From sequence record OZ346219.1: a stretch of 64,000 nucleotides of DNA; one strand, written 5' to 3'. Within the stretch, counting starts at the first letter, position 1. Every line of letters starts with the position of its first letter. The stretch is from a phage. The notes under the pieces were generated by a model that made no database searches, was not told the origin of the DNA, and was given only the letters and a program-made list of their open reading frames with translations. The translations under genes were made by a program, and so were the position numbers. Shown one piece after another: positions 3,737 through 48,332 of this stretch.

Positions 3737-4710
3737 TATACGAACTCCAATTCAACCATTAATTGCATTAACAAAAAGACAATGTGAATCTCTTTATCAG
3801 CCGCGTGTGCAAACATCTGATTATTTTCACCGATAATCTCGGTCAGACGGATAATCGACGCTGGCTTAACTTGAGTATACAACTCATTATAAAGTTTCTT
3901 GACAAATTGAGCGTATGTATTGGTATATCGCGGTGCAAGTTTACGCACATTAGCAAACTGTTTAGTTTTAAGTGCTTCCACCACATCTGTTACTTCGGTA
4001 TTGCTACTTTCGATAACCATGCTCAATACGCCAGCATCAATTTTGCCATGTTTAGCGTAGCGATCCAAAAGTTTCATTACGCGCCGGAAGTCTGGGAAGT
4101 TCTGCTTAACCAGTTCCGCTAATACGCGCATTTCTTCTACTGGCACACCTTCTTTATCAAGAATTGCTTTACACCGGACGATCATTTCTTTCATCATGCG
4201 AAGCTGATCATCTTTAGTCGGAGATCCAAACGTGATGGGGTCAAATCGAGATCGTAACGCTGGGATAATACCTTCTAGATCGTTTGCTGTGATAATGAAT
4301 GTCACGTTGTTTGAGTATGCCTCAGAGAAACTACGCAAGTGTCTTTGAGCATCAGCTAGCCCCGCTCGGTCATACTCATCGATAATAACAACTTTGCCTT
4401 TTTCTCTTTTTTCTTCATCGAGTGATACACTCTGCGCAAAGCGTGTAATCTCATCGCGGATAAAATCAATCTTACAATCTGCGCCGTTAACAAACAGATA
4501 ATCAACACCCACATCTTCGCAAAGCGCCTTAGCAACGGTTGTTTTACCAGTACCTGGCGATGGGCTATGCAGGATCATAGAAGGGATTCGGCCTTGCTTA
4601 ACAATCTGCGCGAAGATCTTTTTATCTGCTTCCGGCAGAATACATTCAGAAATTGATTTCGGACGGTATTTCTGTTCCCACTGAAACTCATTTTCATTAA
4701 CACTCAGCAT
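3736..4710 (-). CDS. 44: Clamp-loader ATPase (gp44-like, RFC family)
   Basis: Walker A SPSPGTGKTT, Walker B VIIDEYD; aligns to recalled T4 gp44; ATG 4710 with GAGGTGA SD (track start 4725 is GTG). Confidence 0.9.
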   Translation of the reverse strand: MLSVNENEFQWEQKYRPKSISECILPEADKKIFAQIVKQGRIPSMILHSPSPGTGKTTVAKALCEDVGVDYLFVNGADCKIDFIRDEITRFAQSVSLDEEKREKGKVVIIDEYDRAGLADAQRHLRSFSEAYSNNVTFIITANDLEGIIPALRSRFDPITFGSPTKDDQLRMMKEMIVRCKAILDKEGVPVEEMRVLAELVKQNFPDFRRVMKLLDRYAKHGKIDAGVLSMVIESSNTEVTDVVEALKTKQFANVRKLAPRYTNTYAQFVKKLYNELYTQVKPASIIRLTEIIGENNQMFAHAADKEIHIVFLLMQLMVELEFV

Positions 4711-8183: not shown

Positions 8184-8427
8184 TAATCCACTCCGCAATC
8201 ACACATTCCATAATATTAAATGCTAACACATCTTCATCAATATTGTAAACACTTGCCGCCTTCACTTTAACTAGTGTGTCTCTGCGATCTGGCAACATGA
8301 TCACATAATCCAGTGTCGCCGGATCATATGTCATAAAGGGATCAACATAAATCCCTTTATTCAATGCCAGATATTCGCGAAGACCTTCTATAACCCTGTG
8401 TCTAAGGTAGGTCATCGATAGAATCAT
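8164..8427 (-). CDS. Hypothetical protein
   Basis: 87-aa track ORF; ATG overlaps upstream stop (ATGA). Confidence 0.4.
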   Translation of the reverse strand: MILSMTYLRHRVIEGLREYLALNKGIYVDPFMTYDPATLDYVIMLPDRRDTLVKVKAASVYNIDEDVLAFNIMECVIAEWINGKVKF

Positions 8428-8984
8428 TTTAGTTTATGTTCCTCTAAAAATTCTTCAATTTCACCTTGCAGGTCTTCCGCTTGCTGTTCCAGAATATCGC
8501 GAAATTCACCTACAGTCAAGCGGTAATCGCATTTCACCAGTCGATGCGGGAGAATATACCCTTTATACATTGTCTCTGACGCTTCCAGGAATACCCCACT
8601 ATGCATGACAGAGATCCAACCTGTTAACGTCAATGGAGTATTCGGAAAATAATACTTGCCGGATTGTTTCCACTGTACGAAAGCACCATATACAATCGGA
8701 TTATATTCACCAACCACACTCTTAATAATGGATTCTACTTTGTCTTTTACAAAGTCGCCAATGTCCATAGTTATCATCAACTCTTTTGGATTAATGATTT
8801 TAAGGTAACGACGGTAGCCGTCATCATACCACATCTTAACAACTGACCGATCAATATTCGCTTTCAGATAGCCATAGATCGGATTCTTGTAATATGATTG
8901 TTTTAGTGTGTATGTGTGCACCAATTTAATAAAATGTTCCATTACCAACAAATCAGAATCAGCCGCGACCATAGTCGTATTCAT
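8424..8984 (-). CDS. Hypothetical protein
   Basis: ATG 8984 with GAGGAA SD; track start 9008 lacks SD. Confidence 0.45.
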   Translation of the reverse strand: MNTTMVAADSDLLVMEHFIKLVHTYTLKQSYYKNPIYGYLKANIDRSVVKMWYDDGYRRYLKIINPKELMITMDIGDFVKDKVESIIKSVVGEYNPIVYGAFVQWKQSGKYYFPNTPLTLTGWISVMHSGVFLEASETMYKGYILPHRLVKCDYRLTVGEFRDILEQQAEDLQGEIEEFLEEHKLK

Positions 8985-9276
8985 AATATGTTCCTCGTTC
9001 AATCTCATATTGTTTCAGGTCTTCTAAAAGTTCATCCACTGCTTGTTTCAGCACATGACGCAGCGTAAAGTAATAGCTTTCATCAAATTCTATTTCCGCG
9101 CGAGGAATAGAACGAAACTTACACTTAACCGTAGTATCGGTGAGTCGCTTTTCGACCATCATCCGAACTTCTTCATGCTCTTTGGAATACCATACATCAA
9201 CGGAGATCCCCTTGCGTCGAGCAAACATAGGCAATGCCGCATTAAATTCCATTACCTTTTGTGCAAGTGTTTTCAT
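8959..9276 (-). CDS. Hypothetical protein
   Basis: 105-aa track ORF; TGGAGT SD; ATGA overlap with upstream stop. Confidence 0.45.
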   Translation of the reverse strand: MKTLAQKVMEFNAALPMFARRKGISVDVWYSKEHEEVRMMVEKRLTDTTVKCKFRSIPRAEIEFDESYYFTLRHVLKQAVDELLEDLKQYEIERGTYYEYDYGRG

Positions 9277-9524
9277 CGTACAGACTCCATAGATCCACGC
9301 GCAATAACATTCTGGGTAATATCAGCAACCTTACGGGATACGATGTTTGTTAGCCCATCTTTGGTGATATTTTCACGATCAAATGGGATTTCGTCATGAG
9401 TCCACAAACCATAGTTAGATCGAAATGATAGCATATACTGACCATCTCGCACAACCTCAAATACATGGATCTTAGTGAATTTCGATAAACCTTCGTTGAT
9501 TTCTTTCAATGCATTAGTAATCAT
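9273..9524 (-). CDS. Hypothetical protein
   Basis: ATG 9524 with TGGAGG SD (track start TTG). Confidence 0.4.
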   Translation of the reverse strand: MITNALKEINEGLSKFTKIHVFEVVRDGQYMLSFRSNYGLWTHDEIPFDRENITKDGLTNIVSRKVADITQNVIARGSMESVR

Positions 9525-11774: not shown

Positions 11775-13244
11775 CTATTCCCCATTACCATTATACTTTC
11801 TTTGCTTAGTTATCCACACTCTAACCATCTCTACAGATTCGCCGTCAGACGGATCAAGAGTTTTTCCTTTTTTCTTCATGCGGTACTTAAATCCGTTAAA
11901 TCTTGCATTCTCTTGCTCGTTAAAGTCGAACATCTTTTTAAATGATTTTCGCCCTTTACGTTCACCACATTCTAGCGGAATCATTCGATCTGTTATTACA
12001 TTGGCATTAGGCAGAAACGTTTTTAGATAATCCACCAACGCCCAATCAGGAACATATAGATTAACATTCTCCTTGCTCTCGTTGTCTCTCAGGTTACAAC
12101 GCAAACATAATTGAAATGCTGGTTCCAGATAATCAGACACATGACGCGCTTTCAAAAACTCGTTTGTCGGGAGATCACAACTATTAGCAAGACCTTTTAA
12201 AATATCAATCTCCCATCGTTGAGGGTTAAAGCTGAACATCACAGCAACATTTTTATGATGAATGTAAGAGTTAAGACCATAAGACCCGTAAGGTATCCGC
12301 TCACCAATACCATTTGTACACGCTTCACGGTCCCGATTCACGGTATAAATGAAGTCATCGCCACATTCATTTTTAACCATATCAACAAGACGTTCAAAGG
12401 TATTGTTTGTTTCTGACTGGTGACGCGACCATCGTTCAGAGTCCGTCATAAGGATGATATTAACTCTATCTGTATTTTTATACTCTTTGAAATATAGTCT
12501 GGATTCTAGCGCACTCGGAACAAAATCGCAATTTGCATAGTATCGTAGATACTTCCCACTATATGTATCAAAGAGATTTGCACATGCTATCGTAACCTTT
12601 TTAAAGTCTCCCCACGTACCGTGTTTGTTATCGTTCAAGAAAACAATTTTCGACCCATTCTTCCGGTGTCCTTCGTTATGTTTTACCATAACGTTGATTT
12701 TCTTCTCTAATAACGCCTCATAAAGCCCTCTAAGAGAAGAATCGATCATATCAGTACCATCCTTCGCACTTTCTATCTTTTCTTTGATAGCGGCCTTCTC
12801 AGAGTCTTTTAGAACTAAGTTCTGTAGGCATTCCGATTCGTCGGCGATTGGTTCGCAATGCTTAGTGATAAGTTCAAGATTAGACTTAAACGGATACTCA
12901 TTAAATTCAACCAGTTGAGGAACTTCATCAATGTAAAGAGCATAATCACCAAACATTTTTGAACGTTCCATATTAGATAACGCTGTATGTGTAATGAATA
13001 TCACATCAGCACCATCTTTAACTGATTGCATTATCGACGCTTGCACTGTCTTAAGGCTTCTTAGTCTTGTGCTATCAATCAAGACAGCACGACCGCCCAT
13101 TCTTTTAAACTTATTGTAAGATTGTTCACTTAAAACACGAGATGGCGAAGCAATAACCGCTTTTTCTTTTGTCTCTAGGACGTGGGAAAGTATAGCATCA
13201 GTTTTCCCCGCCGCTGGCAATGCGATTAATGTTTCAATCTTCAT
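11775..13244 (-). CDS. P-loop NTPase of unknown function
   Basis: 489 aa; N-terminal LPAAGKTDA (Walker A-like) and ALYIDEVPQ (Walker B/DExx-like); AAGGG SD; I recall no T4 counterpart at this position. Confidence 0.6.
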   Translation of the reverse strand: MKIETLIALPAAGKTDAILSHVLETKEKAVIASPSRVLSEQSYNKFKRMGGRAVLIDSTRLRSLKTVQASIMQSVKDGADVIFITHTALSNMERSKMFGDYALYIDEVPQLVEFNEYPFKSNLELITKHCEPIADESECLQNLVLKDSEKAAIKEKIESAKDGTDMIDSSLRGLYEALLEKKINVMVKHNEGHRKNGSKIVFLNDNKHGTWGDFKKVTIACANLFDTYSGKYLRYYANCDFVPSALESRLYFKEYKNTDRVNIILMTDSERWSRHQSETNNTFERLVDMVKNECGDDFIYTVNRDREACTNGIGERIPYGSYGLNSYIHHKNVAVMFSFNPQRWEIDILKGLANSCDLPTNEFLKARHVSDYLEPAFQLCLRCNLRDNESKENVNLYVPDWALVDYLKTFLPNANVITDRMIPLECGERKGRKSFKKMFDFNEQENARFNGFKYRMKKKGKTLDPSDGESVEMVRVWITKQRKYNGNGE

Positions 13245-13531
13245 TAGAAACCCTTACGTCGTTCTTTCTGGCATTTCTTGATCATTTTATCAGAAATTTC
13301 GCGCTTAGGTGCAATCTCTTTCACACCGAAAGCACTAATGCCAAATTCAGAGAGAATATATTCAACCAACAATTCACGCACACGCGCTTTACCGATATTC
13401 ACGCCGTTATTTTTCAGATATGTCTGGCCTTCGACTTGCATCAGATCTAAATCTGCGTCGGTAATATTGATTTCTTCCATGCGCCCAAATCGAGAATAAA
13501 CCATGTGTGCGATTGCATTGTGTACTAACAT
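13244..13531 (-). CDS. Hypothetical protein
   Basis: ATG 13531 with GAGGAA SD (track start TTG). Confidence 0.4.
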   Translation of the reverse strand: MLVHNAIAHMVYSRFGRMEEINITDADLDLMQVEGQTYLKNNGVNIGKARVRELLVEYILSEFGISAFGVKEIAPKREISDKMIKKCQKERRKGF

Positions 13532-13552
13532 AATATATTCCTCACTCAAGAA

Positions 13553-13700: not shown

Positions 13701-13970
13701 TCAATAATCATAAATCGCCCTCAGTTCTTTATAGCCTCCAATGTGCTCGTTGTCAATGAATATCTGGGGGTATACAAACCGGAGGCTCTTTGAGTTCAGC
13801 CTCCCCGCCAGTTCTTCAATCATATCACGGTCGGGAATAATGTCAACCCCGACCTGCTTGAATACTGGTTTAAGTGTATATGGAATACCCAGATCATCCA
13901 GTAGCTTCATTGCACTAATACAACCATAACAATGATAAGCCTCTTTCGGTATACCGTATATCTCGATCAT
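13701..13970 (-). CDS. Glutaredoxin/thioredoxin-like protein (NrdC/NrdH-like)
   Basis: 89 aa; active-site CYGC near N-terminus, C-terminal IGGYKELRAIY; AAGG SD. Confidence 0.7.
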   Translation of the reverse strand: MIEIYGIPKEAYHCYGCISAMKLLDDLGIPYTLKPVFKQVGVDIIPDRDMIEELAGRLNSKSLRFVYPQIFIDNEHIGGYKELRAIYDY

Positions 13971-14443
13971 TTCTCAGCCTTTAATCTTTCTAGTTCTTCT
14001 TCCAGTTCCTTGATCCGTTGGTCACGTTCAAAGTCACGCTGCAACTTAGTGGCGAATACTCGTTTAAACTGATTGTAATCATCGATTTTAAACACTTCTT
14101 CTTCGCCATAGCGACGCACAGAAACTTCGTAGTTATTGAAGAATTGTTGCATCATTGCTTCGGATGATAGTTCTGCTGATACTACTTTAAAATATTGATC
14201 TTCGGTAGGTGAAAACCAATTACAAGCATAAAGATAAACCTTTTCATTGTCTGGACACTGGTAAGCCTTACCATCGATTTCAATCACAGAAACATATTCA
14301 GGTATAGTAGATGAATCAATAGCTAAGACTTTAAACTGACGGTCCCCGATAAACTCGGAGATCACACGATTCGCATCACTGGTTGCAAAGGCTTTACGCG
14401 CTTGTTCGTTTTTCCACTGATAGGTCATGCCAACAACAAACAT
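13967..14443 (-). CDS. WEVGKTY-family paralogue (coiled-coil C-terminus)
   Basis: ATG 14443 with GAGG SD; MTYQWKNEQARKAF module; C-terminal KELEEELERLKAEK. Confidence 0.5.
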   Translation of the reverse strand: MFVVGMTYQWKNEQARKAFATSDANRVISEFIGDRQFKVLAIDSSTIPEYVSVIEIDGKAYQCPDNEKVYLYACNWFSPTEDQYFKVVSAELSSEAMMQQFFNNYEVSVRRYGEEEVFKIDDYNQFKRVFATKLQRDFERDQRIKELEEELERLKAEK

Positions 14444-14444
14444 A

Positions 14445-15269
14445 TTACCAACCTCGCTCTTTACCAATCAAAAATTCAACTTCACGACGTTTAATGTCTT
14501 CTTGAAGGTCTTTAATCTTCTGGCGATCTTGCATTATTTCGTCCATCTTGTCAAGTGCTGCGATGAAATCATCGAAACGTTCAAAGGTTTTACCTTCATT
14601 TGCTTCGCTAAATTTAACCATTGTCAGGCCATAACGACTACTAAACAGACGTTTCAACTGTCCAACGATCTTAGAATCAGTGGTTATAACTTCCAATTCT
14701 TCTACTTCACGAAAGAATTTTCTATCAGAATCAATAAACCAGCTAGTTCCTTTATGGTCGCTATCTTCGGTTGCACTCATTAGAGTATGGTCTTTACCAT
14801 CAATTTCAATTACATTAACTTGCCCACATAGACTAACATTTTTAACAGTAAAAGGTCTATAATTTATTGCTCGTGCAATAACATAATTAAGGTTAGATAC
14901 GTTTTCAGCATAATGACAGAAGTCGGTCATAGCATTCGCATCTTTCCAAGTATAAGTTTTACCAACTTCCCATTTCTGGGGAACTTCTTCAACTTCACGA
15001 AAGAATTTTCGATCGAATGGACTAAAGAAATATGTTGCAGTCCAAATGTCTTTTCCTGTAGCAGTTTTCGCCGTATGATAAACACCGTCTAGCTCTATTG
15101 CATTAATCCAACCGTTACCCTCGATCTCGATGATGGTAAATGGCTTGTCACCAATAGCTGCACTAATATCGCTGTTAAGTGGAGAAAGAACACCTTCTCC
15201 GTTAGTAATAAACTCAGTTTTAGAGTTTTCATCTTTCCAAGTGTAAGTTTTACCAATTTCCCATTTCAT
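14445..15269 (-). CDS. WEVGKTY-family paralogue, internally duplicated
   Basis: 274 aa; two copies of the ~95-aa module (MKWEIGKTYTWKD and QKWEVGKTYTWKD, each followed by DRKFFREVEE); AAGGGG SD. Confidence 0.55.
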   Translation of the reverse strand: MKWEIGKTYTWKDENSKTEFITNGEGVLSPLNSDISAAIGDKPFTIIEIEGNGWINAIELDGVYHTAKTATGKDIWTATYFFSPFDRKFFREVEEVPQKWEVGKTYTWKDANAMTDFCHYAENVSNLNYVIARAINYRPFTVKNVSLCGQVNVIEIDGKDHTLMSATEDSDHKGTSWFIDSDRKFFREVEELEVITTDSKIVGQLKRLFSSRYGLTMVKFSEANEGKTFERFDDFIAALDKMDEIMQDRQKIKDLQEDIKRREVEFLIGKERGW

Positions 15270-15281
15270 AATATATTCCCC

Positions 15282-15746
15282 TTAACCGATTTTATCAAGT
15301 TCGTTTAATGCTTTCTCTGCTTCCGGTATAGCTTGCACCCTTTCCGGCATTTTGTCAAGAAAATCTTTCAACTCTTCAAAACTGGAGATATGACGCAAGG
15401 CATTAGCACCGATAGCCGCATGTGATTTGCATTCAAAGCGAATTTTATAATTATCCATAGCCAATTTGAGAAGATCAATTAGTTTAGATTCTTCTGGAAT
15501 AATAATTTCTTCAAATCTGCTACGGTCGTGACACAGAAACCAACAATATAGACCTACATCGGTTGAACTCATATAAGTTCCATCATGAAGATATACAGAT
15601 CGCACGTATCCTTTTTTCGCATCAACCGACGCAACTTTAAACGGTAATCTCAGATATTTCAAATAATCAACATCATACCATTTAAAAAATTGTTTTGCAT
15701 CTTTTACATCTTTCCACGCATAGGTCTTACCAACTTCCCATTTCAT
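15282..15746 (-). CDS. WEVGKTY-family paralogue
   Basis: ATG 15746 (MKWEVGKTYAWKD) 7 nt after upstream stop. Confidence 0.5.
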   Translation of the reverse strand: MKWEVGKTYAWKDVKDAKQFFKWYDVDYLKYLRLPFKVASVDAKKGYVRSVYLHDGTYMSSTDVGLYCWFLCHDRSRFEEIIIPEESKLIDLLKLAMDNYKIRFECKSHAAIGANALRHISSFEELKDFLDKMPERVQAIPEAEKALNELDKIG

Positions 15747-15750
15747 AATA

Positions 15751-16278
15751 TCATCTCTCATTTTTGATACGTGATTCTAATTGGATCATACGGTCGCGCG
15801 TTTGCTTATATTCTCGGATAGCACCGATCCGGCTAGGCATACCATCCAGTACGCTCTTAATACCTTCTAGGGTAGTGATTTTAGCAATGCTATTATGTAA
15901 CCCCATCTTATCGATCAACTGAATGTCGTAGGCTTCCATAAGCAGACCCAGGAGTTCTAAAGTTAGGTCTTCTTCTTTTTCTTCCGATTCTGGAATCTTA
16001 GGTTCAATAGTAACTTCGGTAAAGAAACGACGCTCACCAGACCAAAACCACACACCGGAACAGCCAATAGGGGATTCTTTTAACGTCATAGAGTCGTAAC
16101 CACTTCCGATAATAGTAATTTCTCTAACATCACCATCATCGTCAATGTCTTCTACCATAAACGGGCGACCAGCCAACAGGTCCACAATACATCTGTTAAT
16201 AGACGACGAAAATTTAGTCAGTTCGGCTTTCGACGCTTCACATTCAATCTTGTAAGTTTTACCAACTTCCCATTCCAT
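15751..16278 (-). CDS. WEVGKTY-family paralogue
   Basis: ATG 16278 (MEWEVGKTYKIE) with GAGGTGA SD overlapping nrdG stop. Confidence 0.5.
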   Translation of the reverse strand: MEWEVGKTYKIECEASKAELTKFSSSINRCIVDLLAGRPFMVEDIDDDGDVREITIIGSGYDSMTLKESPIGCSGVWFWSGERRFFTEVTIEPKIPESEEKEEDLTLELLGLLMEAYDIQLIDKMGLHNSIAKITTLEGIKSVLDGMPSRIGAIREYKQTRDRMIQLESRIKNER

Positions 16279-16288
16279 AATAATCACC

Positions 16289-16792
16289 TCAAATAATTTT
16301 CACTGGAATACTATTAACAATCTTGTATTGTACTTGATTGTCAGACCCCCGCCACGGCTTCTTCGTTGGCATATCTTTAATATAACGCCCATCGATGAAC
16401 ATGTCAACAGATTCTACAATTTTTCTTTGCTCATCATTCAATTGGTCAAGGGTATAACCAGACCATAGCCAAATATCTTTATTTGGCATCCATGATTTTA
16501 CTTCATCGATGATCCGCTGTACACCCTTTAAATTGCGTTTATACAATGGATCGCCACCTAAGAATGTTAGTCCCTGAATAAAATCAGGTCTAAGCAGATC
16601 CAGAATCAATCCCATTGTATCATCGGTGAATGGTTCCCCGTTCTTAGGATTGAGTAGGCTAGCATTAAAGCAACCATCACATGCGTGTGAACATCCGGTA
16701 ACGTAAAGGGAGACTCTCACTCCCTCACCGTTAACCATATCACAATCTTTAATATCGGCATAGCGTAGTTTGCCGTATGTATCAGAACTCAT
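16289..16792 (-). CDS. nrdG: Anaerobic ribonucleotide reductase activating protein (radical SAM)
   Basis: CSHACDGC cluster near N-terminus typical of NrdG; adjacent to nrdD as in T4; ATG 16792. Confidence 0.85.
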   Translation of the reverse strand: MSSDTYGKLRYADIKDCDMVNGEGVRVSLYVTGCSHACDGCFNASLLNPKNGEPFTDDTMGLILDLLRPDFIQGLTFLGGDPLYKRNLKGVQRIIDEVKSWMPNKDIWLWSGYTLDQLNDEQRKIVESVDMFIDGRYIKDMPTKKPWRGSDNQVQYKIVNSIPVKII

Positions 16793-16934
16793 ATTCAATT
16801 ACCCCGAACTCGTTTACAATCTGCGCTTTATAGTAACCACCGCGAGATGCTAATAGATAAGCTGGGCTTAGGTATTCGTATTCACGGATTTCTACTTGTG
16901 CGTTTTCAGTTTCCCAAATCAGTAAAGTCCACAT
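16782..16934 (-). CDS. Hypothetical small protein (50 aa)
   Basis: ATG 16934 with AGGAGAATCAAAT leader, directly downstream of promoter 16977-17005. Confidence 0.35.
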   Translation of the reverse strand: MWTLLIWETENAQVEIREYEYLSPAYLLASRGGYYKAQIVNEFGVIEYEF

Positions 16935-16976
16935 ATTTGATTCTCCTGTAAAGTTGTATCTCGTCTTGATGAATAT

Positions 16977-17005
16977 AGTATAGGGGATCTCGCGATCCCC
17001 GTCAA
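16977..17005 (-). promoter_or_regulatory. Sigma70-like early promoter with stem-loop spacer
   Basis: Minus strand TTGACG-GGGATCGCGAGATCCCC-TATACT; 17-nt palindromic spacer. Confidence 0.55.
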
Positions 17006-17009
17006 GCAT

Positions 17010-17537
17010 TTATTTTAAATTTTTTCGAATGTAGTCAGACCATTCCTTCCCTGTCAGTTCGGTCCCATTCTGGAAACTGAAATATTCATACGGCATCGAG
17101 TCAAGATAAAACAGGATCATACATCGCGCCATATAATACCAATCACGATTAAAGTAAACTACGTTATCGCCAGTACCATCAGCACCTTTATCATAACCAT
17201 CGCGGGTACGGGCGACCCATTGAATAGTATCATTTTTCTCACGGATCGTAACAGGTTCCCAATATCCAGCACATCCAGCATGACCACACGAACAAGTAAG
17301 GAAATATTGTCCTTTTGCTTTGTTGTCGTCCCATTCACGATGGATTGGTTCGATCTCGTGAAACAGTGCTAAGCAATCATGATTATGCAACACTGGCTTA
17401 CCATCAATCAATGCATGGAATGTATACAAACGACCCGTAGACAAATAGCTATCCTCACGCTCAACCAGTTCAATAGCAATCTTTTTAGCTCGTTCTTTGT
17501 GTCGTTGTGCTTTACGCTTACGGTTTAATGATTTCAT
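17010..17537 (-). CDS. Hypothetical protein
   Basis: ATG 17537 with GAGGTGA SD; basic N-terminus, Cys/His-rich middle. Confidence 0.45.
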   Translation of the reverse strand: MKSLNRKRKAQRHKERAKKIAIELVEREDSYLSTGRLYTFHALIDGKPVLHNHDCLALFHEIEPIHREWDDNKAKGQYFLTCSCGHAGCAGYWEPVTIREKNDTIQWVARTRDGYDKGADGTGDNVVYFNRDWYYMARCMILFYLDSMPYEYFSFQNGTELTGKEWSDYIRKNLK

Positions 17538-17554
17538 ATTCACCTCACACATTA

Positions 17555-18094
17555 TCAAAGGTCGCGATATAGTACATTATGAAAATGAGAACTTGCATTA
17601 CCAATATTGTAGATAATAAATTCTTCATCCGGCGCTTGCGCTACAAATTGAGTATGAGCAACCGCCACAACCTTAAAAATACGATCCGTGATCTTGTGTT
17701 TAATTTCTGCCCCTACTTCCATAGGAACATATTCATTTGTTTCTGTTTCAGTCGCAAAACAGCCATCTTCTTCATAAGCACGAACAAATCGATCGCAATC
17801 AGTACGCTTAACAAATTCAAGAGTATACAATTCTCGTGAATTGTCGGTATAGACCAATACAGAATTATTATGATAGCGAATCACATACAGGTTATTATCA
17901 TCGTCAATTACGCAAAAGCTACGGATTCCTTCGCCTTTACTCCAGCAGATATTAACCACCGTTCCTCTAATAAAAAAACTTTCCTTTAAATTAAAACTAG
18001 TCAATGTGCTAGCGTGCATTTTAACAACAACACCATCGCCAATTTCCAGTTTACGAAGTTTAACTTCTTTGTTCAGTACACAAAACATCATCAT
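17555..18094 (-). CDS. Hypothetical protein
   Basis: 179-aa ORF; GAGAGGA SD; first gene after promoter 18124-18151. Confidence 0.45.
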   Translation of the reverse strand: MMMFCVLNKEVKLRKLEIGDGVVVKMHASTLTSFNLKESFFIRGTVVNICWSKGEGIRSFCVIDDDNNLYVIRYHNNSVLVYTDNSRELYTLEFVKRTDCDRFVRAYEEDGCFATETETNEYVPMEVGAEIKHKITDRIFKVVAVAHTQFVAQAPDEEFIIYNIGNASSHFHNVLYRDL

Positions 18095-18123
18095 GTTGTC
18101 CTCTCGTTGTTTTCGATGTGAGC

Positions 18124-18151
18124 ATTATACATTAGCTAATCATGTTGTCAA
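18124..18151 (-). promoter_or_regulatory. Sigma70-like early promoter
   Basis: Minus strand TTGACA-N16-TATAAT immediately after the nrdD terminator. Confidence 0.6.
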
Positions 18152-18159
18152 CACCCCAA

Positions 18160-18190
18160 AACGAAAAAGCCGACCCTTTCGGATCGGCTG
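18160..18190 (-). terminator. Rho-independent terminator after nrdD
   Basis: Minus strand GCCGATCCGAAAGGGTCGGC then TTTTTCGTTTT. Confidence 0.65.
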
Positions 18191-18194
18191 AAAT

Positions 18195-20057
18195 TTACAT
18201 GTGCTTAACGCGGTTTACCATCTCGGAGTGTTTCCCGTGGTTGAATGGACGCAGATCAACAGATCCAAGATATCCACTAACGCGACGGATAACATTCATC
18301 TTTTCCAGATTGTCATTACCGCAATCAGGACAAACAAAACCAGACTCGGTCGCTCTCATTTCCTTAGTAGATCCGCATACATGACATACATCAGAAGGAG
18401 TATTAACACCGAAGTAGTGCAATTTATCCATTGCATAGTCTACTACAGTTTCAAGACCTTTCAGGTTGTTTTTCATGTCTGGGAACTCAACATAAGAGAT
18501 CATGCCACCGGACGCCAGCCAGTGATAATCTTTCTCAAAGTCAATTTTCTCAAATGGAGTGACTTTCCGGTCTACGTCAAGGTGGAATGAGTTGGTGTAC
18601 CAGTCTTTATCGGTAGCACCCTTAACAATACCAAATTGCTCTCGGTCCAGTCGATTAAATCGATAGCAAAGGCTCTCGGCTGGAGTGCCGTAAAGACTAA
18701 ACCCAAGTCCGGTTTCGTCCTTCCATTTTTCAGTATAATGACGCAAGATCTTAAGAATATGTTTACCGTATCGCTGCGCATCTTCCGAATCAAACGGATG
18801 AACACCAAACAGGACGCTCAATACCTCATGTAAACCAATATATCCAAGAGAGATACTAGCGCGACCATCTTTCAACACTTCCAAAATTTCATCGTTTTGA
18901 TGAATACGGAAAAACGCACCTTCGGTATACAGCACCGGAGCAACATTGGCTTTAGCCCCTTTTAAAGCGTCTACGCGACTCATGAGCGCATCAAAGCAAA
19001 TAGGCATACGATTGGCTAGCTCTTGTTCGAATAGCTCAATTCTGCGCATTACAGACGCTTTACCAGCACGACGCGCGGCAATAAGGGCAATACGCGGAAG
19101 ATTCAGGGTCACAACACCCAAGTTATTACGTCCGTCTAATACTTCTTCGCCTTTCTCATTATGCCACACACCCAGGAAGCTACGACAACCCATCGGGCTA
19201 ACCGGAACACTAGATCCGGTGATACTACGGTTATTCTTCGCAGAGATATAATCAGGGTAAAGACGCTTACTAGAACATTCCAATGCAAGTTGCTTAATGT
19301 CGTAGTTCGGATCTTCCGGTTTAAGGTTTAATCCTTCTTCTAAGAACATCACCAGCTTAGGAAACACCGGAGTGATACCATCTTTACCTAAACCTTTAGT
19401 TCGAACGTTCAGGATCGCTTTCTGAATCAGTTTTTCTTCCCAGCTAGTACCCATACCAAAGGTTAAAGTCACAAAAGGCGTTTGACCGTTGGTGGAGAAC
19501 AAAGTGTTGATTTCATATTCCAACGCTTGATACCCGTCTAAAGTTTCTTTTTCTGTCTTCTCTTGTGCATAGAGAGTATCAGCTTTGATTCCGTAGGTTT
19601 CGGCATCAGCAAGGTGTTTATGATATGTTTTCTCAACATACGGTGCTAACACCTGATCGATGTTTGCGATTGTGGTCCCGCCATATTGATGACTTGCCAC
19701 CTGTGCGATAATTTGAGCGGTTACAGCACAAGCAACGCCGATTGATTTCGGACTTTCGATTTGTGCGCTACCCAATTTAAAACCATTCTCTAACATGTCT
19801 TTGAGATTAACAAGACAGCAGTTAGTAAACGGCATAGCGGGTGCATAATCCATATCATGATAATGAATGTCACCGTCTACATGCGCTTTATAGATGTGCT
19901 CAGGTAACACGGTTTTAGCAATCTGTTTAGACACAGCACCAGCAATCAGATCTCGACGTGTCGGGAATGTTCGCGCGTCTTTGTTCGCGTTCTCTTTGCT
20001 TACTTCGTTTTCTTTACCCGTTGCGATCTCTGTAATGTCTTTGATTAGTTTTTCCAT
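18195..20057 (-). CDS. nrdD: Anaerobic ribonucleoside-triphosphate reductase (class III)
   Basis: 620 aa; C-terminal CPDCG zinc site and glycyl-radical region (RVSGYLG); uninterrupted; AGGTGA SD. Confidence 0.95.
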   Translation of the reverse strand: MEKLIKDITEIATGKENEVSKENANKDARTFPTRRDLIAGAVSKQIAKTVLPEHIYKAHVDGDIHYHDMDYAPAMPFTNCCLVNLKDMLENGFKLGSAQIESPKSIGVACAVTAQIIAQVASHQYGGTTIANIDQVLAPYVEKTYHKHLADAETYGIKADTLYAQEKTEKETLDGYQALEYEINTLFSTNGQTPFVTLTFGMGTSWEEKLIQKAILNVRTKGLGKDGITPVFPKLVMFLEEGLNLKPEDPNYDIKQLALECSSKRLYPDYISAKNNRSITGSSVPVSPMGCRSFLGVWHNEKGEEVLDGRNNLGVVTLNLPRIALIAARRAGKASVMRRIELFEQELANRMPICFDALMSRVDALKGAKANVAPVLYTEGAFFRIHQNDEILEVLKDGRASISLGYIGLHEVLSVLFGVHPFDSEDAQRYGKHILKILRHYTEKWKDETGLGFSLYGTPAESLCYRFNRLDREQFGIVKGATDKDWYTNSFHLDVDRKVTPFEKIDFEKDYHWLASGGMISYVEFPDMKNNLKGLETVVDYAMDKLHYFGVNTPSDVCHVCGSTKEMRATESGFVCPDCGNDNLEKMNVIRRVSGYLGSVDLRPFNHGKHSEMVNRVKHM

Positions 20058-20070
20058 TGTATCACCTATG

Positions 20071-20092
20071 AAAAAGCGGGATTTCTCCCGCT
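20071..20092 (-). terminator. Rho-independent terminator upstream of nrdD
   Basis: Minus strand GCGGGAGAAATCCCGC then TTTTT. Confidence 0.55.
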
Positions 20093-20101
20093 CGTTGATA
20101 G

Positions 20102-20596
20102 TTATTTTACCAGTTCTGCTAATTCTTTTTCTTTAGCTTCTAGTTCAGCTTTAAGCTGTTTAATCTCTTGTCGCTTCTTATTAGCGGCTTCCTGCTTACT
20201 ATTTCGGATAACCTGATCTAGATACAACTCCCAATCCTGAATATTTTTGATAATGTATCCGTCAACATTAATTGGTCGGAGATTCAGTACAGCTTCCAGT
20301 TTAGTCGCAAAAACTTTAATTGCTGGCGTGAAGTATTCATATTCGTTATCTTCAAACCAATAACCTAGACTTGCATTATCAATACGAAGACGAAGTTCAA
20401 GATCAAGGTCTTTATCTTCGGTGTAAAGATCTTTCACCTGACCCAGCGAACTAACAACAACTTTAAAACGAATTTTATCTACACCACCAAACACATCAGT
20501 AAGTATACCAGCAATTGAGCTATTAGCGCAAGATTGGTCGCTGAATGCGTCAAGGTTTTCTTTAGTTACAGTATACCAAACATCTTGTACCCACAT
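20102..20596 (-). CDS. WEVGKTY-family paralogue (coiled-coil C-terminus)
   Basis: 164 aa; resembles 13967-14443 (FATKLEAV / FATKLQRD; KQLKAELEAKEKELAELVK); driven by promoter 20628-20656. Confidence 0.5.
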   Translation of the reverse strand: MWVQDVWYTVTKENLDAFSDQSCANSSIAGILTDVFGGVDKIRFKVVVSSLGQVKDLYTEDKDLDLELRLRIDNASLGYWFEDNEYEYFTPAIKVFATKLEAVLNLRPINVDGYIIKNIQDWELYLDQVIRNSKQEAANKKRQEIKQLKAELEAKEKELAELVK

Positions 20597-20627
20597 AATA
20601 TAATCCTCTCGTTGTTTAGATGGGAGT

Positions 20628-20656
20628 ATCTTACTACTCCCGTTTCATCATGTCAA
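20628..20656 (-). promoter_or_regulatory. Sigma70-like early promoter with stem-loop over -10
   Basis: TTGACA-N17-TAAGAT; GGGAGTA/TACTCCC inverted repeat spans the -10. Confidence 0.5.
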
Positions 20657-21219
20657 GCGTTAAATGACTTTTGGATCTCTTTCAGTTCAGCTACTTTATC
20701 GGCGCTGAATTTAGCGTAGGTATCATGTCGAATAATTTCACTTTCAAGAAAGGTTTCCAGCCGAGATCTATTTTCAATAAGGAACTCTTTCAGGTCTTCC
20801 GCGTTCTTGATAAAGATTTTATTGTCGGTAATGTCATCTTCAATCGCAAAGGAGATAGAGCGAACTTTACCAAACAAGTTAATCAGATCTTCCAGAGATT
20901 CTTCTTTCTTAACTGGTTTCATTTCTTCAAACTGCTTTTTAGTGATGCGTTTAAAGTATTTGCGCTCGCTTGCATCAATCATGATTGACGCACCCTCATA
21001 ATCATGAGTTTCTACCAAATACACTTTACCCATAACATTAACCGTAAGAACTTTAAAGCCCCTGTGAAGCACACCATACAGGAACTTGTTATGTTGTGGG
21101 TAGCGTTTAACAAATTCCTCTGCGGACTCAGCATTACGGAAAGTGTAATAACGACCTCGTTCAAAAACAGCATCAGTTGAAGACTTAACCGGATACAATT
21201 TATACGTTTTCTGTACCAT
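20653..21219 (-). CDS. WEVGKTY-family paralogue (divergent)
   Basis: ATG 21219 with GAGGATTATATT leader; same three-part architecture as 15751-16278. Confidence 0.45.
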   Translation of the reverse strand: MVQKTYKLYPVKSSTDAVFERGRYYTFRNAESAEEFVKRYPQHNKFLYGVLHRGFKVLTVNVMGKVYLVETHDYEGASIMIDASERKYFKRITKKQFEEMKPVKKEESLEDLINLFGKVRSISFAIEDDITDNKIFIKNAEDLKEFLIENRSRLETFLESEIIRHDTYAKFSADKVAELKEIQKSFNA

Positions 21220-21233
21220 AATATAATCCTCTA

Positions 21234-21506
21234 TCATTTCACTAATTGAACAGCACGGAACAGAATGCGCTCACACGGAAGCAGCATAAATTCCCAACGC
21301 GGATCAAAGTCTTTAGCGGTGTATGTTTTCCCATCAACCGAGATTTCACTTACATAACCAACAGGTGACACTTTAAGAACAGTAAACCCATTCTTGATGA
21401 CTTCGTAGGTATCTTTCACCCCTTCGTATTCATCATCTAAGAAGTCTTTATGTGCTTGCTCAGATTTAAAAACATAGGCAACACCGGATTTAAACATCTT
21501 ACGCAT
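21234..21506 (-). CDS. WEVGKTY-family N-domain-only paralogue
   Basis: ATG 21506 with AAGGAGAATCAACA leader; VDGKTYTAKDFDPRWEF. Confidence 0.4.
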   Translation of the reverse strand: MRKMFKSGVAYVFKSEQAHKDFLDDEYEGVKDTYEVIKNGFTVLKVSPVGYVSEISVDGKTYTAKDFDPRWEFMLLPCERILFRAVQLVK

Positions 21507-21537
21507 TGTTGATTCTCCTTCTTGATTAGATGGGAGT

Positions 21538-21566
21538 ATTTTACTACTCCCATTTCTTATTGTCAA
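21538..21566 (-). promoter_or_regulatory. Sigma70-like early promoter with stem-loop over -10
   Basis: TTGACA-N17-TAAAAT; same GGGAGTA/TACTCCC hairpin as 20628-20656. Confidence 0.5.
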
Positions 21567-21569
21567 CTA

Positions 21570-22043
21570 CTATCTTAATCTTTGTATGAATTGTTTCTTA
21601 TACTTCTTCGTGATCTCTTCTCTTGTATCAGCGTCACAATAATCGAAACCTTCTGCGTCCATAATAGCAACCATCTCCGCGCGTGTCAAGCGTGAAAATC
21701 GTTTTACTTTATCAACAGCATATTGAGGATGTAAATGATTGTTGGTGTAGTCTCCTTTGATGTAATTAACATAGTTTGTAGCCCAAACAACGAAATCAGC
21801 ACCTAAAGCACCAACACCAAACCGTTTAAAGTCTCCGGTCAACGATCCTTCTAGGCGGTTGCAACACGAATGAAGCAATCCCCTTACGCGGCCTTGCCCT
21901 TTCCCATCTAGATCGTGGTCGTGGTCAAGATGGTTTTTGCTCATATCCTCAAAAAGTGGCAATTGACAAAGGGGGCAAATGCCCCCCTGTTTTTCGAATA
22001 GTTCTTGTTTGTACTCTTTAGCACTCTTAGCAGTCAGTAACAT
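21570..22043 (-). CDS. 49: Endonuclease VII (Holliday-junction resolvase)
   Basis: 157 aa from ATG 22043, same length as T4 endo VII; CPLCQ...HLDHDHDL...KVRGLL and C-terminal KKQ..R.L match recalled T4 gp49; GGAGGGTGA SD. Confidence 0.85.
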   Translation of the reverse strand: MLLTAKSAKEYKQELFEKQGGICPLCQLPLFEDMSKNHLDHDHDLDGKGQGRVRGLLHSCCNRLEGSLTGDFKRFGVGALGADFVVWATNYVNYIKGDYTNNHLHPQYAVDKVKRFSRLTRAEMVAIMDAEGFDYCDADTREEITKKYKKQFIQRLR

Positions 22044-37605: not shown

Positions 37606-37944
37606 TCACACCTTTAAAGTCATAGACGCATAAACATTAATGCCAGGCCAGTTAGGATCGCAATTATACTCAACATCCCACAAATAAAGCGGTTTAGATG
37701 TATCAGCCAAGTTTTTAAAATCTTCCACCCACATTTCAAGGCTATATGATGGATAAACTAGGCTATCATATCCGCCGTAACGTTGGCCTACTGGTCGGTC
37801 AGTAAAAACTACCTCAAGATCCGGTAATTCTTTTTCAAGGATAACCGCCAGCGCATAAATCAGACGGTCTTCCTTGTTACGCTGCCGAAGGACCGTTGTC
37901 AGTTGGTTTTTCTGGTTCACTAGCAAGCACCTCCACATTTTCAC
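37606..37944 (-). CDS. Hypothetical protein
   Basis: 112-aa track ORF; overlaps upstream ORF by 68 nt, start uncertain. Confidence 0.3.
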   Translation of the reverse strand: MKMWRCLLVNQKNQLTTVLRQRNKEDRLIYALAVILEKELPDLEVVFTDRPVGQRYGGYDSLVYPSYSLEMWVEDFKNLADTSKPLYLWDVEYNCDPNWPGINVYASMTLKV

Positions 37945-38197
37945 AGAATGAAATTTTCACAGACACAATTTTACCATAAGTGAAGAATGAATATACATTA
38001 TCGAGATATTCAACGTCGCCTACAATCACATCAAACTGCGGATCAGCAACCGCCGCAACATATTCTACCAGTTCATCAAGAGAATGCAACTTAATTTCAT
38101 CAATTCGGCTGTATTTGGTTGCATCTTTAATTTTAAAACCACGTTCTTTCAGTTTGTCAATCAGAATTTCACGCGGAGTTTCAAACAGTTTGCTCAT
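37877..38197 (-). CDS. Hypothetical protein
   Basis: 106-aa track ORF. Confidence 0.35.
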   Translation of the reverse strand: MSKLFETPREILIDKLKERGFKIKDATKYSRIDEIKLHSLDELVEYVAAVADPQFDVIVGDVEYLDNVYSFFTYGKIVSVKISFCENVEVLASEPEKPTDNGPSAA

Positions 38198-41713: not shown

Positions 41714-42088
41714 TTAAGAATATTTTACTTCGTCTACAATGTCTTTCATGACATTGATTTCCATTCCGGTCAGAACACGTTGGAACATGTGCTGAACATA
41801 CGCTTTCAGATATTCATTTGATGGCTTGCTATCAAAAGTCTTTTTAGTGTAGTAGTCATCACCGAAAGCTACTGTAATTACATTTTCGTCGTCGTTCCAA
41901 GCGATATAAGCAAATTTGCCGTTATCCCAGAAGCGAGCACTAATTGCTACTTTTGTTGAATCGAATCCTACTTCGCTGTGAGATTCAAGAACTACTTGCG
42001 TGCCAGTTTCTTTATGAATGTAGTAGCGGGATACTAAGTCAAAGTTACGGGTGTAGTGACATTCGAATTTATCTTTAAACAACATCAT
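41714..42088 (-). CDS. Hypothetical protein
   Basis: 124-aa ORF downstream of promoter 42127-42155. Confidence 0.45.
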   Translation of the reverse strand: MMLFKDKFECHYTRNFDLVSRYYIHKETGTQVVLESHSEVGFDSTKVAISARFWDNGKFAYIAWNDDENVITVAFGDDYYTKKTFDSKPSNEYLKAYVQHMFQRVLTGMEINVMKDIVDEVKYS

Positions 42089-46542: not shown

Positions 46543-47016
46543 CTATTTGTTAAGACCTTTAAAGCCAAACACTTTCTTTAATGCATGTTCGGTGATGATC
46601 TTAAACTCCATGTTATGCTTTTGGCATAATTTCACGGCAGCTAACCATTTTTCAGTATTTTTTGTGTATGTCCATACTTCATGCATATATCGTTGCTTTG
46701 TCTTCGCGGTCATTCTTTTTGGCTTTTCCGGTGGCCTTGTCTCTTTAGCTGGTTTAACTTCCCATAAATGCTCCTTGCCATCATCAAACTTAACGTAAAA
46801 ATCCATAAAGTATCTGTGTCTTTTCCCGTCTGTTGATGACTCATAAGGAATTACTACGGTCTCAGATCCCCATTTTGCAACTCTAGGATTGCGGTCTAAA
46901 AATTTCATTATATGTAATTCCCAACTTGACCTGTAGACGATTTTTTTCAGGTCGCCTTTATACTTCTCCGGGTTTTCAGGTCTATATTTACCCTTATATG
47001 TGTTGCAATTACCCAT
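46543..47016 (-). CDS. Putative head completion protein (gp4-like by synteny); PD-(D/E)xK-like motif
   Basis: 157 aa (T4 gp4 ~150 aa); AAGGTGG SD; FMDFYVKF...HLWEVKP resembles a D...E.K nuclease motif. Confidence 0.45.
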   Translation of the reverse strand: MGNCNTYKGKYRPENPEKYKGDLKKIVYRSSWELHIMKFLDRNPRVAKWGSETVVIPYESSTDGKRHRYFMDFYVKFDDGKEHLWEVKPAKETRPPEKPKRMTAKTKQRYMHEVWTYTKNTEKWLAAVKLCQKHNMEFKIITEHALKKVFGFKGLNK

Positions 47017-47711
47017 TATACCACCTTCTTCTTGCAGTTGTCACCATGCCATCTAACATAATTTCCCTGATTGGCTGTTTTTCCACAATGAGGACAGGTG
47101 AAATACGGACGAGACTTTGACAATTCACTATATTTTTGTTTCATTTCTGGCGTGTTATGAATACGTTTCCATTTCTCTACGTTTTCTTGTGACAACTTTC
47201 TACCCTTACCCGCTTTAGAGATGTTGTCTCTCCATTCTTGTGTAATTTCTCTTGACGCAATATTTCTTTTATGTTCTTCTGTAAACACTCTACCTTTTAA
47301 TGAAGCAGATAATTTCTGTCGATGTTCCTCAGATAATTTAATTCCTTTTCTCTTTCCTTTAGTTGCTTCTGATATTCTGCGTCTAGTCTCTTCGGATCTT
47401 TTTCTTCCTGTATGAAATTTTCTTGAAGTCTCGACCGCAAGTTTTCTTACCCACTCAAATTGTTTATTGTTATAGTTGGTAGACCCCATCAATATTTTCG
47501 CCGCATGTACAATTCCGTGATGTGTTGGATGCATTTTTGCTAAAAGTTGATGAGCAACAAAATGTTCAGACCCCGTTAACTCAACTATATTTTCTGGACT
47601 ATCATCACCTCCCATACAACGAGGAATAATATGATGTTTTTCTTTATATCCTTCAAGCGTTCTATGCTTTGCGCGTTCAATTAATCGATCATAATGTTTT
47701 TGATAGTCCAT
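47016..47711 (-). CDS. HNH homing endonuclease (Mob-like) with basic repeat region and zinc finger
   Basis: 231 aa; HHIIPRCMGGDDSPENIVELTGSEHFVAH HNH core; repeated basic G[KR]..SEEH[KR] motifs; C-terminal CPHCG; divergent from gene 53 and shares its leader through a 14-bp inverted repeat. Confidence 0.75.
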   Translation of the reverse strand: MDYQKHYDRLIERAKHRTLEGYKEKHHIIPRCMGGDDSPENIVELTGSEHFVAHQLLAKMHPTHHGIVHAAKILMGSTNYNNKQFEWVRKLAVETSRKFHTGRKRSEETRRRISEATKGKRKGIKLSEEHRQKLSASLKGRVFTEEHKRNIASREITQEWRDNISKAGKGRKLSQENVEKWKRIHNTPEMKQKYSELSKSRPYFTCPHCGKTANQGNYVRWHGDNCKKKVV

Positions 47712-47769
47712 TTTAGCACCCTTTATTATAAATACATAATACTATTTATCAATTGAGGGTGCTAAAATG
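47709..47769. repeat. Perfect 14-bp inverted repeat containing both divergent start codons
   Basis: 47709-47722 CATTTTAGCACCCT and 47756-47769 AGGGTGCTAAAATG; includes HNH ATG (47711, minus) and gene 53 ATG (47767, plus); flanks late promoter. Confidence 0.7.
47727..47734 (+). promoter_or_regulatory. T4-type late promoter (TATAAATA) for gene 53
   Basis: Exact TATAAATA ~33 nt upstream of gene 53 ATG. Confidence 0.55.
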
Positions 47770-48321
47770 CTCTTTTCTTTCTTCCCTGCCATTGAATACA
47801 ACGGCAAGATGATTACTGACATTGTGCGCAATTACCGCGCATATTTCAACGCAATAATTTCTGATTATAACATACAAACATATTACATTCAAGGGAGTCC
47901 ACGACCGGAACAAGTTGCATATGAAGTATACGGAAACCAACAACTTTATTGGATCTTGCTGATGCTTAATGACGTATACGATCCGTTCCATGACTGGATC
48001 ACCGATCAAGAGACAGCATATGAATCAGCCGAACAGCGATATGCAAATGTAGGAGGAAATCAAGTATTATACCACGTTGATATTGACGGAAACAAGTATT
48101 GGAATCTTACCGAATATCCGAAAGGATCAAGCAATTGGTATGATAAAGGGGATATTCATCATCGTCATTTGCAGTTTCAAGGTGCACTATCGGCAGTAGA
48201 CACACTGGAAGATGCGATTCTCCGCAATGAGGAACGACGCAAGATCAAGATCATAGATCCTACACAAATTAAACAATTTATTAACGCATTCATTCGAGAA
48301 ATGGAAAAGGCTGATGTGTAA
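47767..48321 (+). CDS. 53: Baseplate wedge protein gp53
   Basis: 184 aa; MLFSFFPAIEY, YYIQGSPRPE, QLYWILLMLND, VDTLEDAIL align to recalled T4 gp53; late promoter TATAAATA at 47727-47734. Confidence 0.9.
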   Translation: MLFSFFPAIEYNGKMITDIVRNYRAYFNAIISDYNIQTYYIQGSPRPEQVAYEVYGNQQLYWILLMLNDVYDPFHDWITDQETAYESAEQRYANVGGNQVLYHVDIDGNKYWNLTEYPKGSSNWYDKGDIHHRHLQFQGALSAVDTLEDAILRNEERRKIKIIDPTQIKQFINAFIREMEKADV

Positions 48322-48332
48322 GGTGATTAATT

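Follow-up and report, generated by a model that had tools for sequence, protein, structure and literature searches.

Profile comparisons place a paralogue array around nrdG and nrdD of a Krischvirus phage in the T4 GoF/Frd.2 family

Introduction

What are the small, similar genes that stand on both sides of nrdG and nrdD in the phage of sequence record OZ346219.1, and what might they do? The locus lies in a stretch of 64,000 nucleotides (nt), here called the window, in which a sequence-only reading, made by a model from the letters and a list of open reading frames (ORFs), had noticed an N-terminal module shared by four consecutive genes and three more. It had proposed an eight-member paralogue family that it did not recognise from T4, of a kind that it considered typical of host-takeover or anti-defence proteins under diversifying selection. 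By megablast, positions 13900-21600 matched 59 phage records, 59/59 of them Krischvirus (RB49-like T4-type coliphages), with phage kaaroe closest at 99.1% identity and RB49 at 97.7%; on these matches, the window phage is a Krischvirus. We report here that the array is an expansion of a family already known from T4, and we weigh what its members may do.

Results

Seven genes carry eight copies of one module

All seven ORFs were confirmed on the minus strand at the positions named by the sequence-only reading, with start codons set from the RB49 annotation and the Shine-Dalgarno context, and together they hold eight copies of an N-terminal module of ~85-97 amino acids (aa):

13967-14443, minus strand: gene A, 158 aa, orthologue of RB49p048; module at 14168-14443; start as annotated in RB49; helical or coiled-coil C-terminal tail.
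14445-15269, minus strand: gene B, 274 aa, RB49p049; modules B1 (14982-15269) and B2 (14691-14981) in tandem, and a C-terminal domain at 14448-14690.
15282-15746, minus strand: gene C, 154 aa, RB49p050; module at 15492-15746 and a C-terminal domain.
15751-16278, minus strand: gene D, 175 aa, RB49p051; module at 16003-16278 and a C-terminal domain; starts 10 nt past the nrdG stop codon.
20102-20596, minus strand: gene E, 164 aa, RB49p057; divergent module at 20321-20596 and a long C-terminal helix.
20653-21219, minus strand: gene F, 188 aa, RB49p059; 17-aa leader, module at ~20932-21168 and a C-terminal domain; start fixed by GAGGA-N8-ATG.
21234-21506, minus strand: gene G, 90 aa, RB49p060; module alone, without a C-terminal domain.

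As had been proposed, the genes form two arrays flanking nrdG and nrdD, with four genes and five modules (A-D, 13967-16278) downstream of nrdG and three genes (E-G, 20102-21506) upstream of nrdD. All-vs-all blastp linked A, B1, B2, C, D, F and G pairwise at E-values of 1e-5 to 1e-11 (gene C to gene B at 6e-11). A hidden Markov model (HMM) built from these seven clear modules returned A at 9e-35, C at 1e-29, F at 3e-26 and G at 5.5e-32, and found two full domains in gene B (1.5e-36 and 8.4e-38; B1 and B2 are 50% identical), confirming the two tandem modules claimed for this gene. The independent PHROG library agreed: phrog_5347 was matched full-length by A-D (2e-60 for A, 1e-57 for C), phrog_622 by A, B, C, D, F and G (2e-7 for A, 4e-7 for G), phrog_8944 by F (3e-101) and phrog_16115 by G (8e-60). 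An exact-protein lookup found no protein identical to F on record. When the module HMM was scanned against the 625 ORFs of the window, nothing further was significant, the top match outside the training set being gene E at 0.0086.

Gene E had no pairwise blastp link to the other members. Its place in the family is supported by hhalign against the module profile (3e-4 as a single sequence and 4.2e-5 profile against profile, each over ~81-83 of 94 profile columns), by a broader HMM containing no E orthologue (23.2 bits, E=2.3e-6, from Met1 over positions 1-85/89) and by matches to phrog_15067 and, at 2.4e-4, to phrog_3710. On these profile scores we regard E as a divergent but supported member, the other seven modules being certain; the paralogy as a whole is, by alignment statistics, real and well beyond chance, and the eight members of the sequence-only reading become eight modules in seven genes.

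The alignment of the eight modules has a mean column identity of 40%, with Y9, F44 and F90 invariant throughout and G6 also invariant across the seven strongly linked modules. Only B1, B2 and C have, in its literal form, the signature by which the family had been noticed, (K/E)WE(V/I)GKTY.WKD; D keeps it just through GKTY (MEWEVGKTYKIEC), and it is degenerate in the remaining modules. A second stretch, DRKFFREVEE, had been taken for a conserved linker; it is exact in B1 and B2 only and, in the structure model of D described below, corresponds to the last barrel strand and the turn preceding it.

Three further window ORFs, at 37877-38197, 41714-42088 and 17555-18094, were weighed as possible additional members and turned down, since their alignments were partial and their E-values 0.004-0.2; the first two additionally have their own PHROGs without cross-hits. 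The third, a minus-strand ORF of 179 aa between nrdG and nrdD (phrog_14838), gave two sub-threshold matches to the module HMM (whole-sequence E 0.1-0.25) and contains two stretches that look loosely module-like by eye ('LEIGDGVVVKM...' and 'MEVGAEIKHKITDRIFKVVAV'). It may hold unrelated or very distant small barrels and was left uncounted.

The module is the N-terminal domain of T4 GoF and Frd.2

The seven-module profile aligned to T4 GoF over its residues 1-91 (hhalign E=7e-11, probability 97%) and to T4 Frd.2 at E=1.6e-5, the comparison with T4 MotB.1 being non-significant (E=3.7e-3, probability 9%). Consistent with this, phrog_622 has both GoF (4.6e-38) and Frd.2 (4.1e-46) as members, phrog_5347 aligns to GoF residues 4-137, and A, B, F and G also match PHROGs labelled 'goF mRNA metabolism modulator', a label that RefSeq already carries on RB49p059, the orthologue of F, and on RB49 frd.2. 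The family that had gone unrecognised is therefore one known from T4: as judged by these profiles, the module is the N-terminal domain of GoF (ComC-alpha) and Frd.2, and the seven genes are a lineage-specific expansion of that family, not a new kind of protein.

GoF and Frd.2, together with MotB.1, were described in 2025 by Kim et al. as a family with an 'LSm-like fold', from three single-module T4 genes (PMC12152347). The text of that paper makes no mention of RB49, Krischvirus, paralogues or multi-module proteins (PMC12152347), and our literature searches found nothing on the Krischvirus nrdDG array.

The module is modelled as a small five-stranded barrel

The AlphaFold2 model of D, built from a 17-row alignment of paralogues and orthologues, reached a predicted local distance difference test score (pLDDT) above 90 over most of residues 1-90, with 62-78 in the tail. 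Its N-terminal part runs as a strand, two helices, strands at 40-45 and 51-56, a pair of short bridge segments, then one short helix and the last strand, and its tail as a helix, two short strands, a helix and a long terminal helix. In this model, the N-terminal domain is a five-stranded beta-barrel of ~90 aa, of SH3/FeoA type ('LSm-like'), with two helices inserted after strand 1. The nearest solved structure to the barrel was FeoA, with 73/80 FeoA residues aligned, and the bent antiparallel five-stranded form with FeoA-type SH3 domains as nearest solved folds is the same outcome as was published for the family (PMC12152347). In BFVD, the D model had 63 matches at E<=1e-3, the best 50 of the 63 being large, mostly T4-like phage proteins without assigned function. 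A model of E from its orthologues alone was poorer (pLDDT 63), its best non-orthologous BFVD neighbours being family targets at a weak E of 0.016-0.06.

By sequence profile or motif, the module falls outside the Sm/LSm/Hfq superfamily proper and outside FeoA (PF04023). None of the seven proteins matched the LSM, Hfq or FeoA profiles of Pfam at E<=1, and a PDB sequence search with the full-length profile returned nothing below E=0.1. Sm and Hfq chains, with their N-terminal helix followed by five strands, were not the closest structural neighbours either. Pfam as a whole, searched with the seven proteins and three neighbours, gave no family match, the single match being DUF7170 on an unrelated neighbour.

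The layout of barrel, linker and variable C-terminal domain holds across the family except in G, which is barrel only, and in B, which has two barrels. Of the helical or coiled-coil C-terminus that had been ascribed to all members, the D and E models show a helical part that ends in a long helix; G lacks it. Y9, F44 and F90, with G6 outside E, seem to lie in the core; elsewhere the copies differ at most positions, and the net charge of the module ranges from -8 to +8. From this invariant core and variable surface and charge, we infer that the barrel is a conserved scaffold with differing binding surfaces.

Copies vary in number and extend beyond T4-type phages

An HMM scan of 1.84 billion representative sequences gave 54 at E<=1e-3, many of them with two or three modules. 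Copy number differs among related phages: RB49 has 12 modules in 9 genes, of which 11 modules in 8 genes lie around nrdD and nrdG, its Frd.2 carrying three; T4 has the three genes, and phage AV108 a B with one module. The full gene set is kept at >=90% identity in 56/59 of the related phage records.

The family also has an unannotated member of 146 aa in the Serratia phage vB_SmaM-ChuuTotoro (Vequintavirinae; 8998-9435 of locus L010), which sits in a gap of the GenBank annotation and matches the HMM at 2e-20 and phrog_5347 at 1.7e-11; the family therefore extends beyond T4-type phages. A tblastn search with the metagenomic representative P0099 for arrays in other isolate genera found Krischvirus only.

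Outside the nrd locus, RB49 Dc2 (211 aa; 11993-12628 of locus L007) is a family member by HMM (3.6e-10) and lies directly upstream of helicase gene 41; the Dc2 model of phage ECD7 was among the BFVD matches of D. T4 GoF(D25Y) acts on gene 41 mRNA, and the adjacency of Dc2 and gene 41 may be coincidence.

Barrels are under relaxed purifying constraint

Compared with RB49 (Nei-Gojobori), the ratio of nonsynonymous to synonymous substitution rates (dN/dS) was 0.12-0.36 gene-wide for the family, against 0.02 for nrdD and 0.04 for nrdG, values that do not bear out diversifying selection. Pooled nonsynonymous and synonymous differences were 38/35 in the barrels and 4/25 in the tails (Fisher p=3e-4), the tails being indistinguishable from the nrd genes in constraint. 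In D and E, it is mainly the N-terminal module that varies between orthologues, with column entropy in 90%-cluster orthologues 2-4x higher in the barrel; the reverse was seen for F. In the segments of large divergence (B1 and the F tail, in phage 011D4), dS was also high, at 0.47 and 1.05, which argues for allelic or segment replacement by recombination and not for a point-mutation arms race. We read the barrel as being under purifying but relaxed or heterogeneous constraint, with mosaicism in addition.

Two recombination routes remodel the array

Two copies of a 45-nt repeat (D2), 87% identical, stand upstream of E and of G:

20612-20656, minus strand: PeSL (promoter-stem-loop) cassette upstream of E; fold -14 kcal/mol, z -2.7.
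21522-21566, minus strand: PeSL cassette upstream of G, the second copy; fold -15.1 kcal/mol, z -3.8.

The fold z-scores are against shuffled sequence. In the E-side cassette, the F stop codon is overlapped by the -35 element TTGACA, and the -10 element TAAGAT sits in the loop of a hairpin (GGGAGTA/TACTCCC); the G-side cassette scored 11/12 in the promoter scan. From these consensus sigma-70/PeSL promoters, early expression of the array is predicted as probable, which, together with the plasticity of the region, agrees with the small early proteins of the sequence-only reading as far as prediction goes. PeSL cassettes were defined in RB49 and phi1 by Arbiol et al. in 2010 and are known drivers of ORFan shuffling (PMC2839356).

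Relative to RB49, the window is missing 1.2 kilobases (kb) that are exactly frd.2 (8253-9431 of the RB49 locus L001). The breakpoints lie inside the ~65-nt direct repeats, two PeSL cassettes, on either side of the gene, and the deletion junction (window 20594-20658) falls at the E-side PeSL. The listed records that match the whole stretch all span ~1.2 kb more than the window, and the three inspected in detail carry frd.2; among contigs with an identical E protein, all six shown keep the gene. No junction lacking frd.2 was present in IMG/VR, and no second example of the deletion was found. The loss may be a rare natural variant, and it suggests that frd.2 is dispensable.

The second route runs through the coding sequence. 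A 57-nt DNA repeat in four copies, 82% identical between B1 and B2, encodes MKWE(V/I)GKTYTWKD; B1 and B2 are linked by this repeat (D1) and by a 30-nt one (D5). In the one-module B of phage AV108 (846-1379 of locus L006), the sequence passes from B1 to B2 exactly after the conserved 5' motif, and on that evidence AV108 is a phage that lost module B1 through a crossover in the 57-nt repeat. A metagenome contig, SRR11185258, carries in place of D-C-B a 154-aa chimera with the start of the D barrel and the tail of B (4001-4465 of locus L017), which may be an artefact of assembling short reads across the repeats. Two recombination routes, through PeSL cassettes and through the conserved 5' coding motif, are thus visible in the sequences compared.

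A ribosome-binding context, GAGGATTATATTATG, is repeated before E, F and the gene at 13244-13549 (20597-20611, 21220-21234 and 13526-13548), and these short DNA repeats could also be recombination substrates. Directly after the nrdD stop, at 18124-18189 on the minus strand, a strong hairpin with a U-run (AGCCGATCC...GGGTCGGCT TTTTCGTTTT) is followed by a perfect sigma-70 promoter (TTGACA-16-TATAAT) before the unrelated ORF at 17555-18091, a terminator-plus-promoter cassette of PeSL type in which the stem-loop has a different position.

Gene order

All genes across 13.5-23.6 kb are on the minus strand, in the order dam, nrdC, gene 49 (endonuclease VII), G, F, E, nrdD, three ORFs, nrdG, D, C, B, A and nrdH. 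The features between the two arrays include:

16289-16798, minus strand: nrdG.
16782-17009, minus strand: small ORF that overlaps the nrdG start; Pfam DUF7170 at 2.4e-17.
18195-20057, minus strand: nrdD.

The three ORFs between nrdD and nrdG are unrelated to the family (phrog_14838, phrog_8242 and the DUF7170 ORF). The last is open for 75 aa in the window and is annotated in RB49 as just 50 aa. GC skew is negative up to ~48 kb, consistent with the minus-strand genes here; its change of sign from negative to positive at ~47000-48500 marks the switch from minus-strand early and middle genes to plus-strand genes.

Discussion

What the array does can be approached from T4. GoF is present there at ~20,000 copies per cell, is early and non-essential, and dimerises (PMC12152347). 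The goF mutations D25Y and G84R let the phage grow again on rho(nusD) hosts (PMC12152347, PMC2988021), and GoF(D25Y) lengthens the half-life of an RNA with the gene 41 leader, an effect that does not depend on Hfq (PMC12152347). On the strength of this genetics, we lean, with some reserve, towards A-G being a GoF/Frd.2 expansion that acts as early modulators of RNA or of the RNA machinery. The proteins would be abundant and non-essential, and would bind RNA or RNA-handling host proteins through the barrel, which could tune the stability or processing of phage transcripts; differing paralogues might cover differing targets or hosts, and the alpha/beta-plus-long-helix tail, present in all but G, probably dimerises or oligomerises.

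A number of observations weigh against such a role. In T4, wild-type GoF and MotB.1 had little effect on reporter RNA, the D25Y mutant alone being active, direct RNA binding by GoF is unproven, and dimerisation is known only for GoF and MotB.1 (PMC12152347). A uniform RNA-binding function fits poorly with several Tudor/KOW protein-binding domains being among the structural neighbours at nearly the Z of FeoA. It fits poorly, too, with the mostly acidic modules, as such a charge does not favour contact with RNA; five of the eight have a net charge of -4 to -8, with F (+8) and C (+2) alone basic. No LSM, Hfq or FeoA profile match was found. The C-terminal domain is modelled at medium confidence (pLDDT 62-78), and early expression of the array is a prediction from consensus promoters.

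The residues at the two T4 suppressor positions add a small lead. The column equivalent to G84 holds K in B1, B2 and F, and R in D, and family-wide K or R occupies 19/51 sequences and G 3/51; the column equivalent to D25 holds Y in B2, W in C and F in D. The D25 column is highly variable across the family, so that reading these copies as natural gain-of-function forms depends on the alignment of a loop region, a further point against the preferred role, and a description of D25Y as 'consensus-restoring' family-wide was rejected and holds only for G84R. It is a long shot that the array is a natural panel of 'activated' GoF variants, in which for example B2 (Y/K) and D (F/R) would be RNA-protecting with distinct targets, and multi-barrel B and RB49 Frd.2, dimerised by their tails, would act as pseudo-oligomeric Hfq-like assemblies; if true, this would be the first phage-encoded, diversified RNA-chaperone toolkit.

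Other explanations share part of the same evidence. The barrels could be protein-binding heads of SH3/Tudor/KOW type, each directed at a different host protein (the RNA polymerase beta lobe, Rho, the degradosome or a defence system), which would make the family one of takeover or anti-defence inhibitors and the RNA effects in T4 indirect. The genetic tie of goF to Rho, the acidity of most modules, the faster evolution of the barrel in D and E and the differing copy number of close relatives all speak for this, and we hold it to be a possible, though clearly less probable, account. Set against it are dN/dS values below 1, with site-level positive selection not shown, T4 GoF pull-downs that recovered just GoF itself (PMC12152347), and the outcome of our searches, in which no defence-related annotation and no literature link between the family and anti-defence activity were found.

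Alternatively, the array may be largely dispensable cargo of a hyperplastic region, amplified and eroded by PeSL- and repeat-mediated recombination with little specific function per copy. The complete absence of frd.2 from the window, the module missing from AV108, the D/B chimera of the metagenome contig and the known shuffling activity of PeSL cassettes (PMC2839356) would fit. All reading frames are intact, however, with dN/dS of 0.12-0.36 and C-terminal domains as constrained as nrdD and nrdG, the full set persists in nearly all related records, and ~20,000 GoF copies per T4 cell are unlikely to be a neutral cost (PMC12152347), which makes this reading an unlikely one. The probability that the motifs are alike by chance of composition, or that virion structural components are what the genes encode, is practically nil: pairwise E-values down to 1e-11, HMM scores above 85 bits, the agreement of the PHROG library and the confident fold prediction speak against chance, which we count as already refuted by the alignment statistics, and the genes, placed in the early minus-strand region with its sigma-70 promoters, stand apart from the late structural block. 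Early modulation of RNA or its machinery by a GoF/Frd.2 expansion is the account that we favour.

What wild-type GoF does has been a question in T4 since the rho(nusD) suppressor work of ~1980, and the 2025 study covered three single-copy T4 genes. RB49-type phages, with about a dozen barrels, offer multi-barrel proteins, varied charge, suppressor-like residues and natural knock-outs (the loss of frd.2, the B gene of AV108), a panel already available for comparative work on what the barrel binds. The nrdDG locus is in addition a clean example of two recombination routes remodelling an accessory-gene array of a phage.

Comparison with known systems

T4 GoF (NP_049624) shares with the window proteins an N-terminal barrel homologous over its whole length, followed by a short alpha/beta-helical tail, and is a small early non-essential protein of a T4-type phage, as the window proteins are predicted to be. 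It differs in sequence (21-27% identity to the seven strongly linked modules, 15% to E) and in setting, as in RB49-type phages goF is missing from its T4 position, dexA coming directly after 39.2, whereas the window family forms arrays around nrdG and nrdD that include a two-module protein. The window tails are longer, with the terminal long helix, and lack the acidic EQ-rich linker of GoF. T4 Frd.2 belongs to the same family but is single-module and lies beside frd, not nrdD; RB49 Frd.2 (RB49p058, 392 aa), the gene absent from the window, has three modules and a phrog_5347-like tail, and the nearest window relative of its module 1 is F (39% identity, both in phrog_8944). T4 MotB.1, of the same structural family according to Kim et al. 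2025 (PMC12152347), was recruited here in the second HMM iteration and has a separate PHROG, 2333.

With FeoA, Hfq and LSm proteins, the family has in common the five-stranded bent antiparallel barrel and helical segments besides it. It differs from Hfq and LSm in showing no evidence of ring oligomers or Sm motifs, and confident hexamer models for GoF were not obtained by Kim et al. (PMC12152347); unlike FeoA, it has no metal-binding histidines, as was also noted for GoF (PMC12152347). Both 45-nt repeats have the parts of the PeSL of RB49 and phi1, namely an upstream stop codon, a -35 element, a stem-loop over the -10 element, a Shine-Dalgarno sequence and a start codon, and the loss of frd.2 is of the inter-PeSL deletion type described there (PMC2839356); these are regulatory and recombination elements flanking genes, not parts of the protein family, and none lies between A-D. 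In conclusion, the array is an enlarged member set of a recently described family and no new kind of system.

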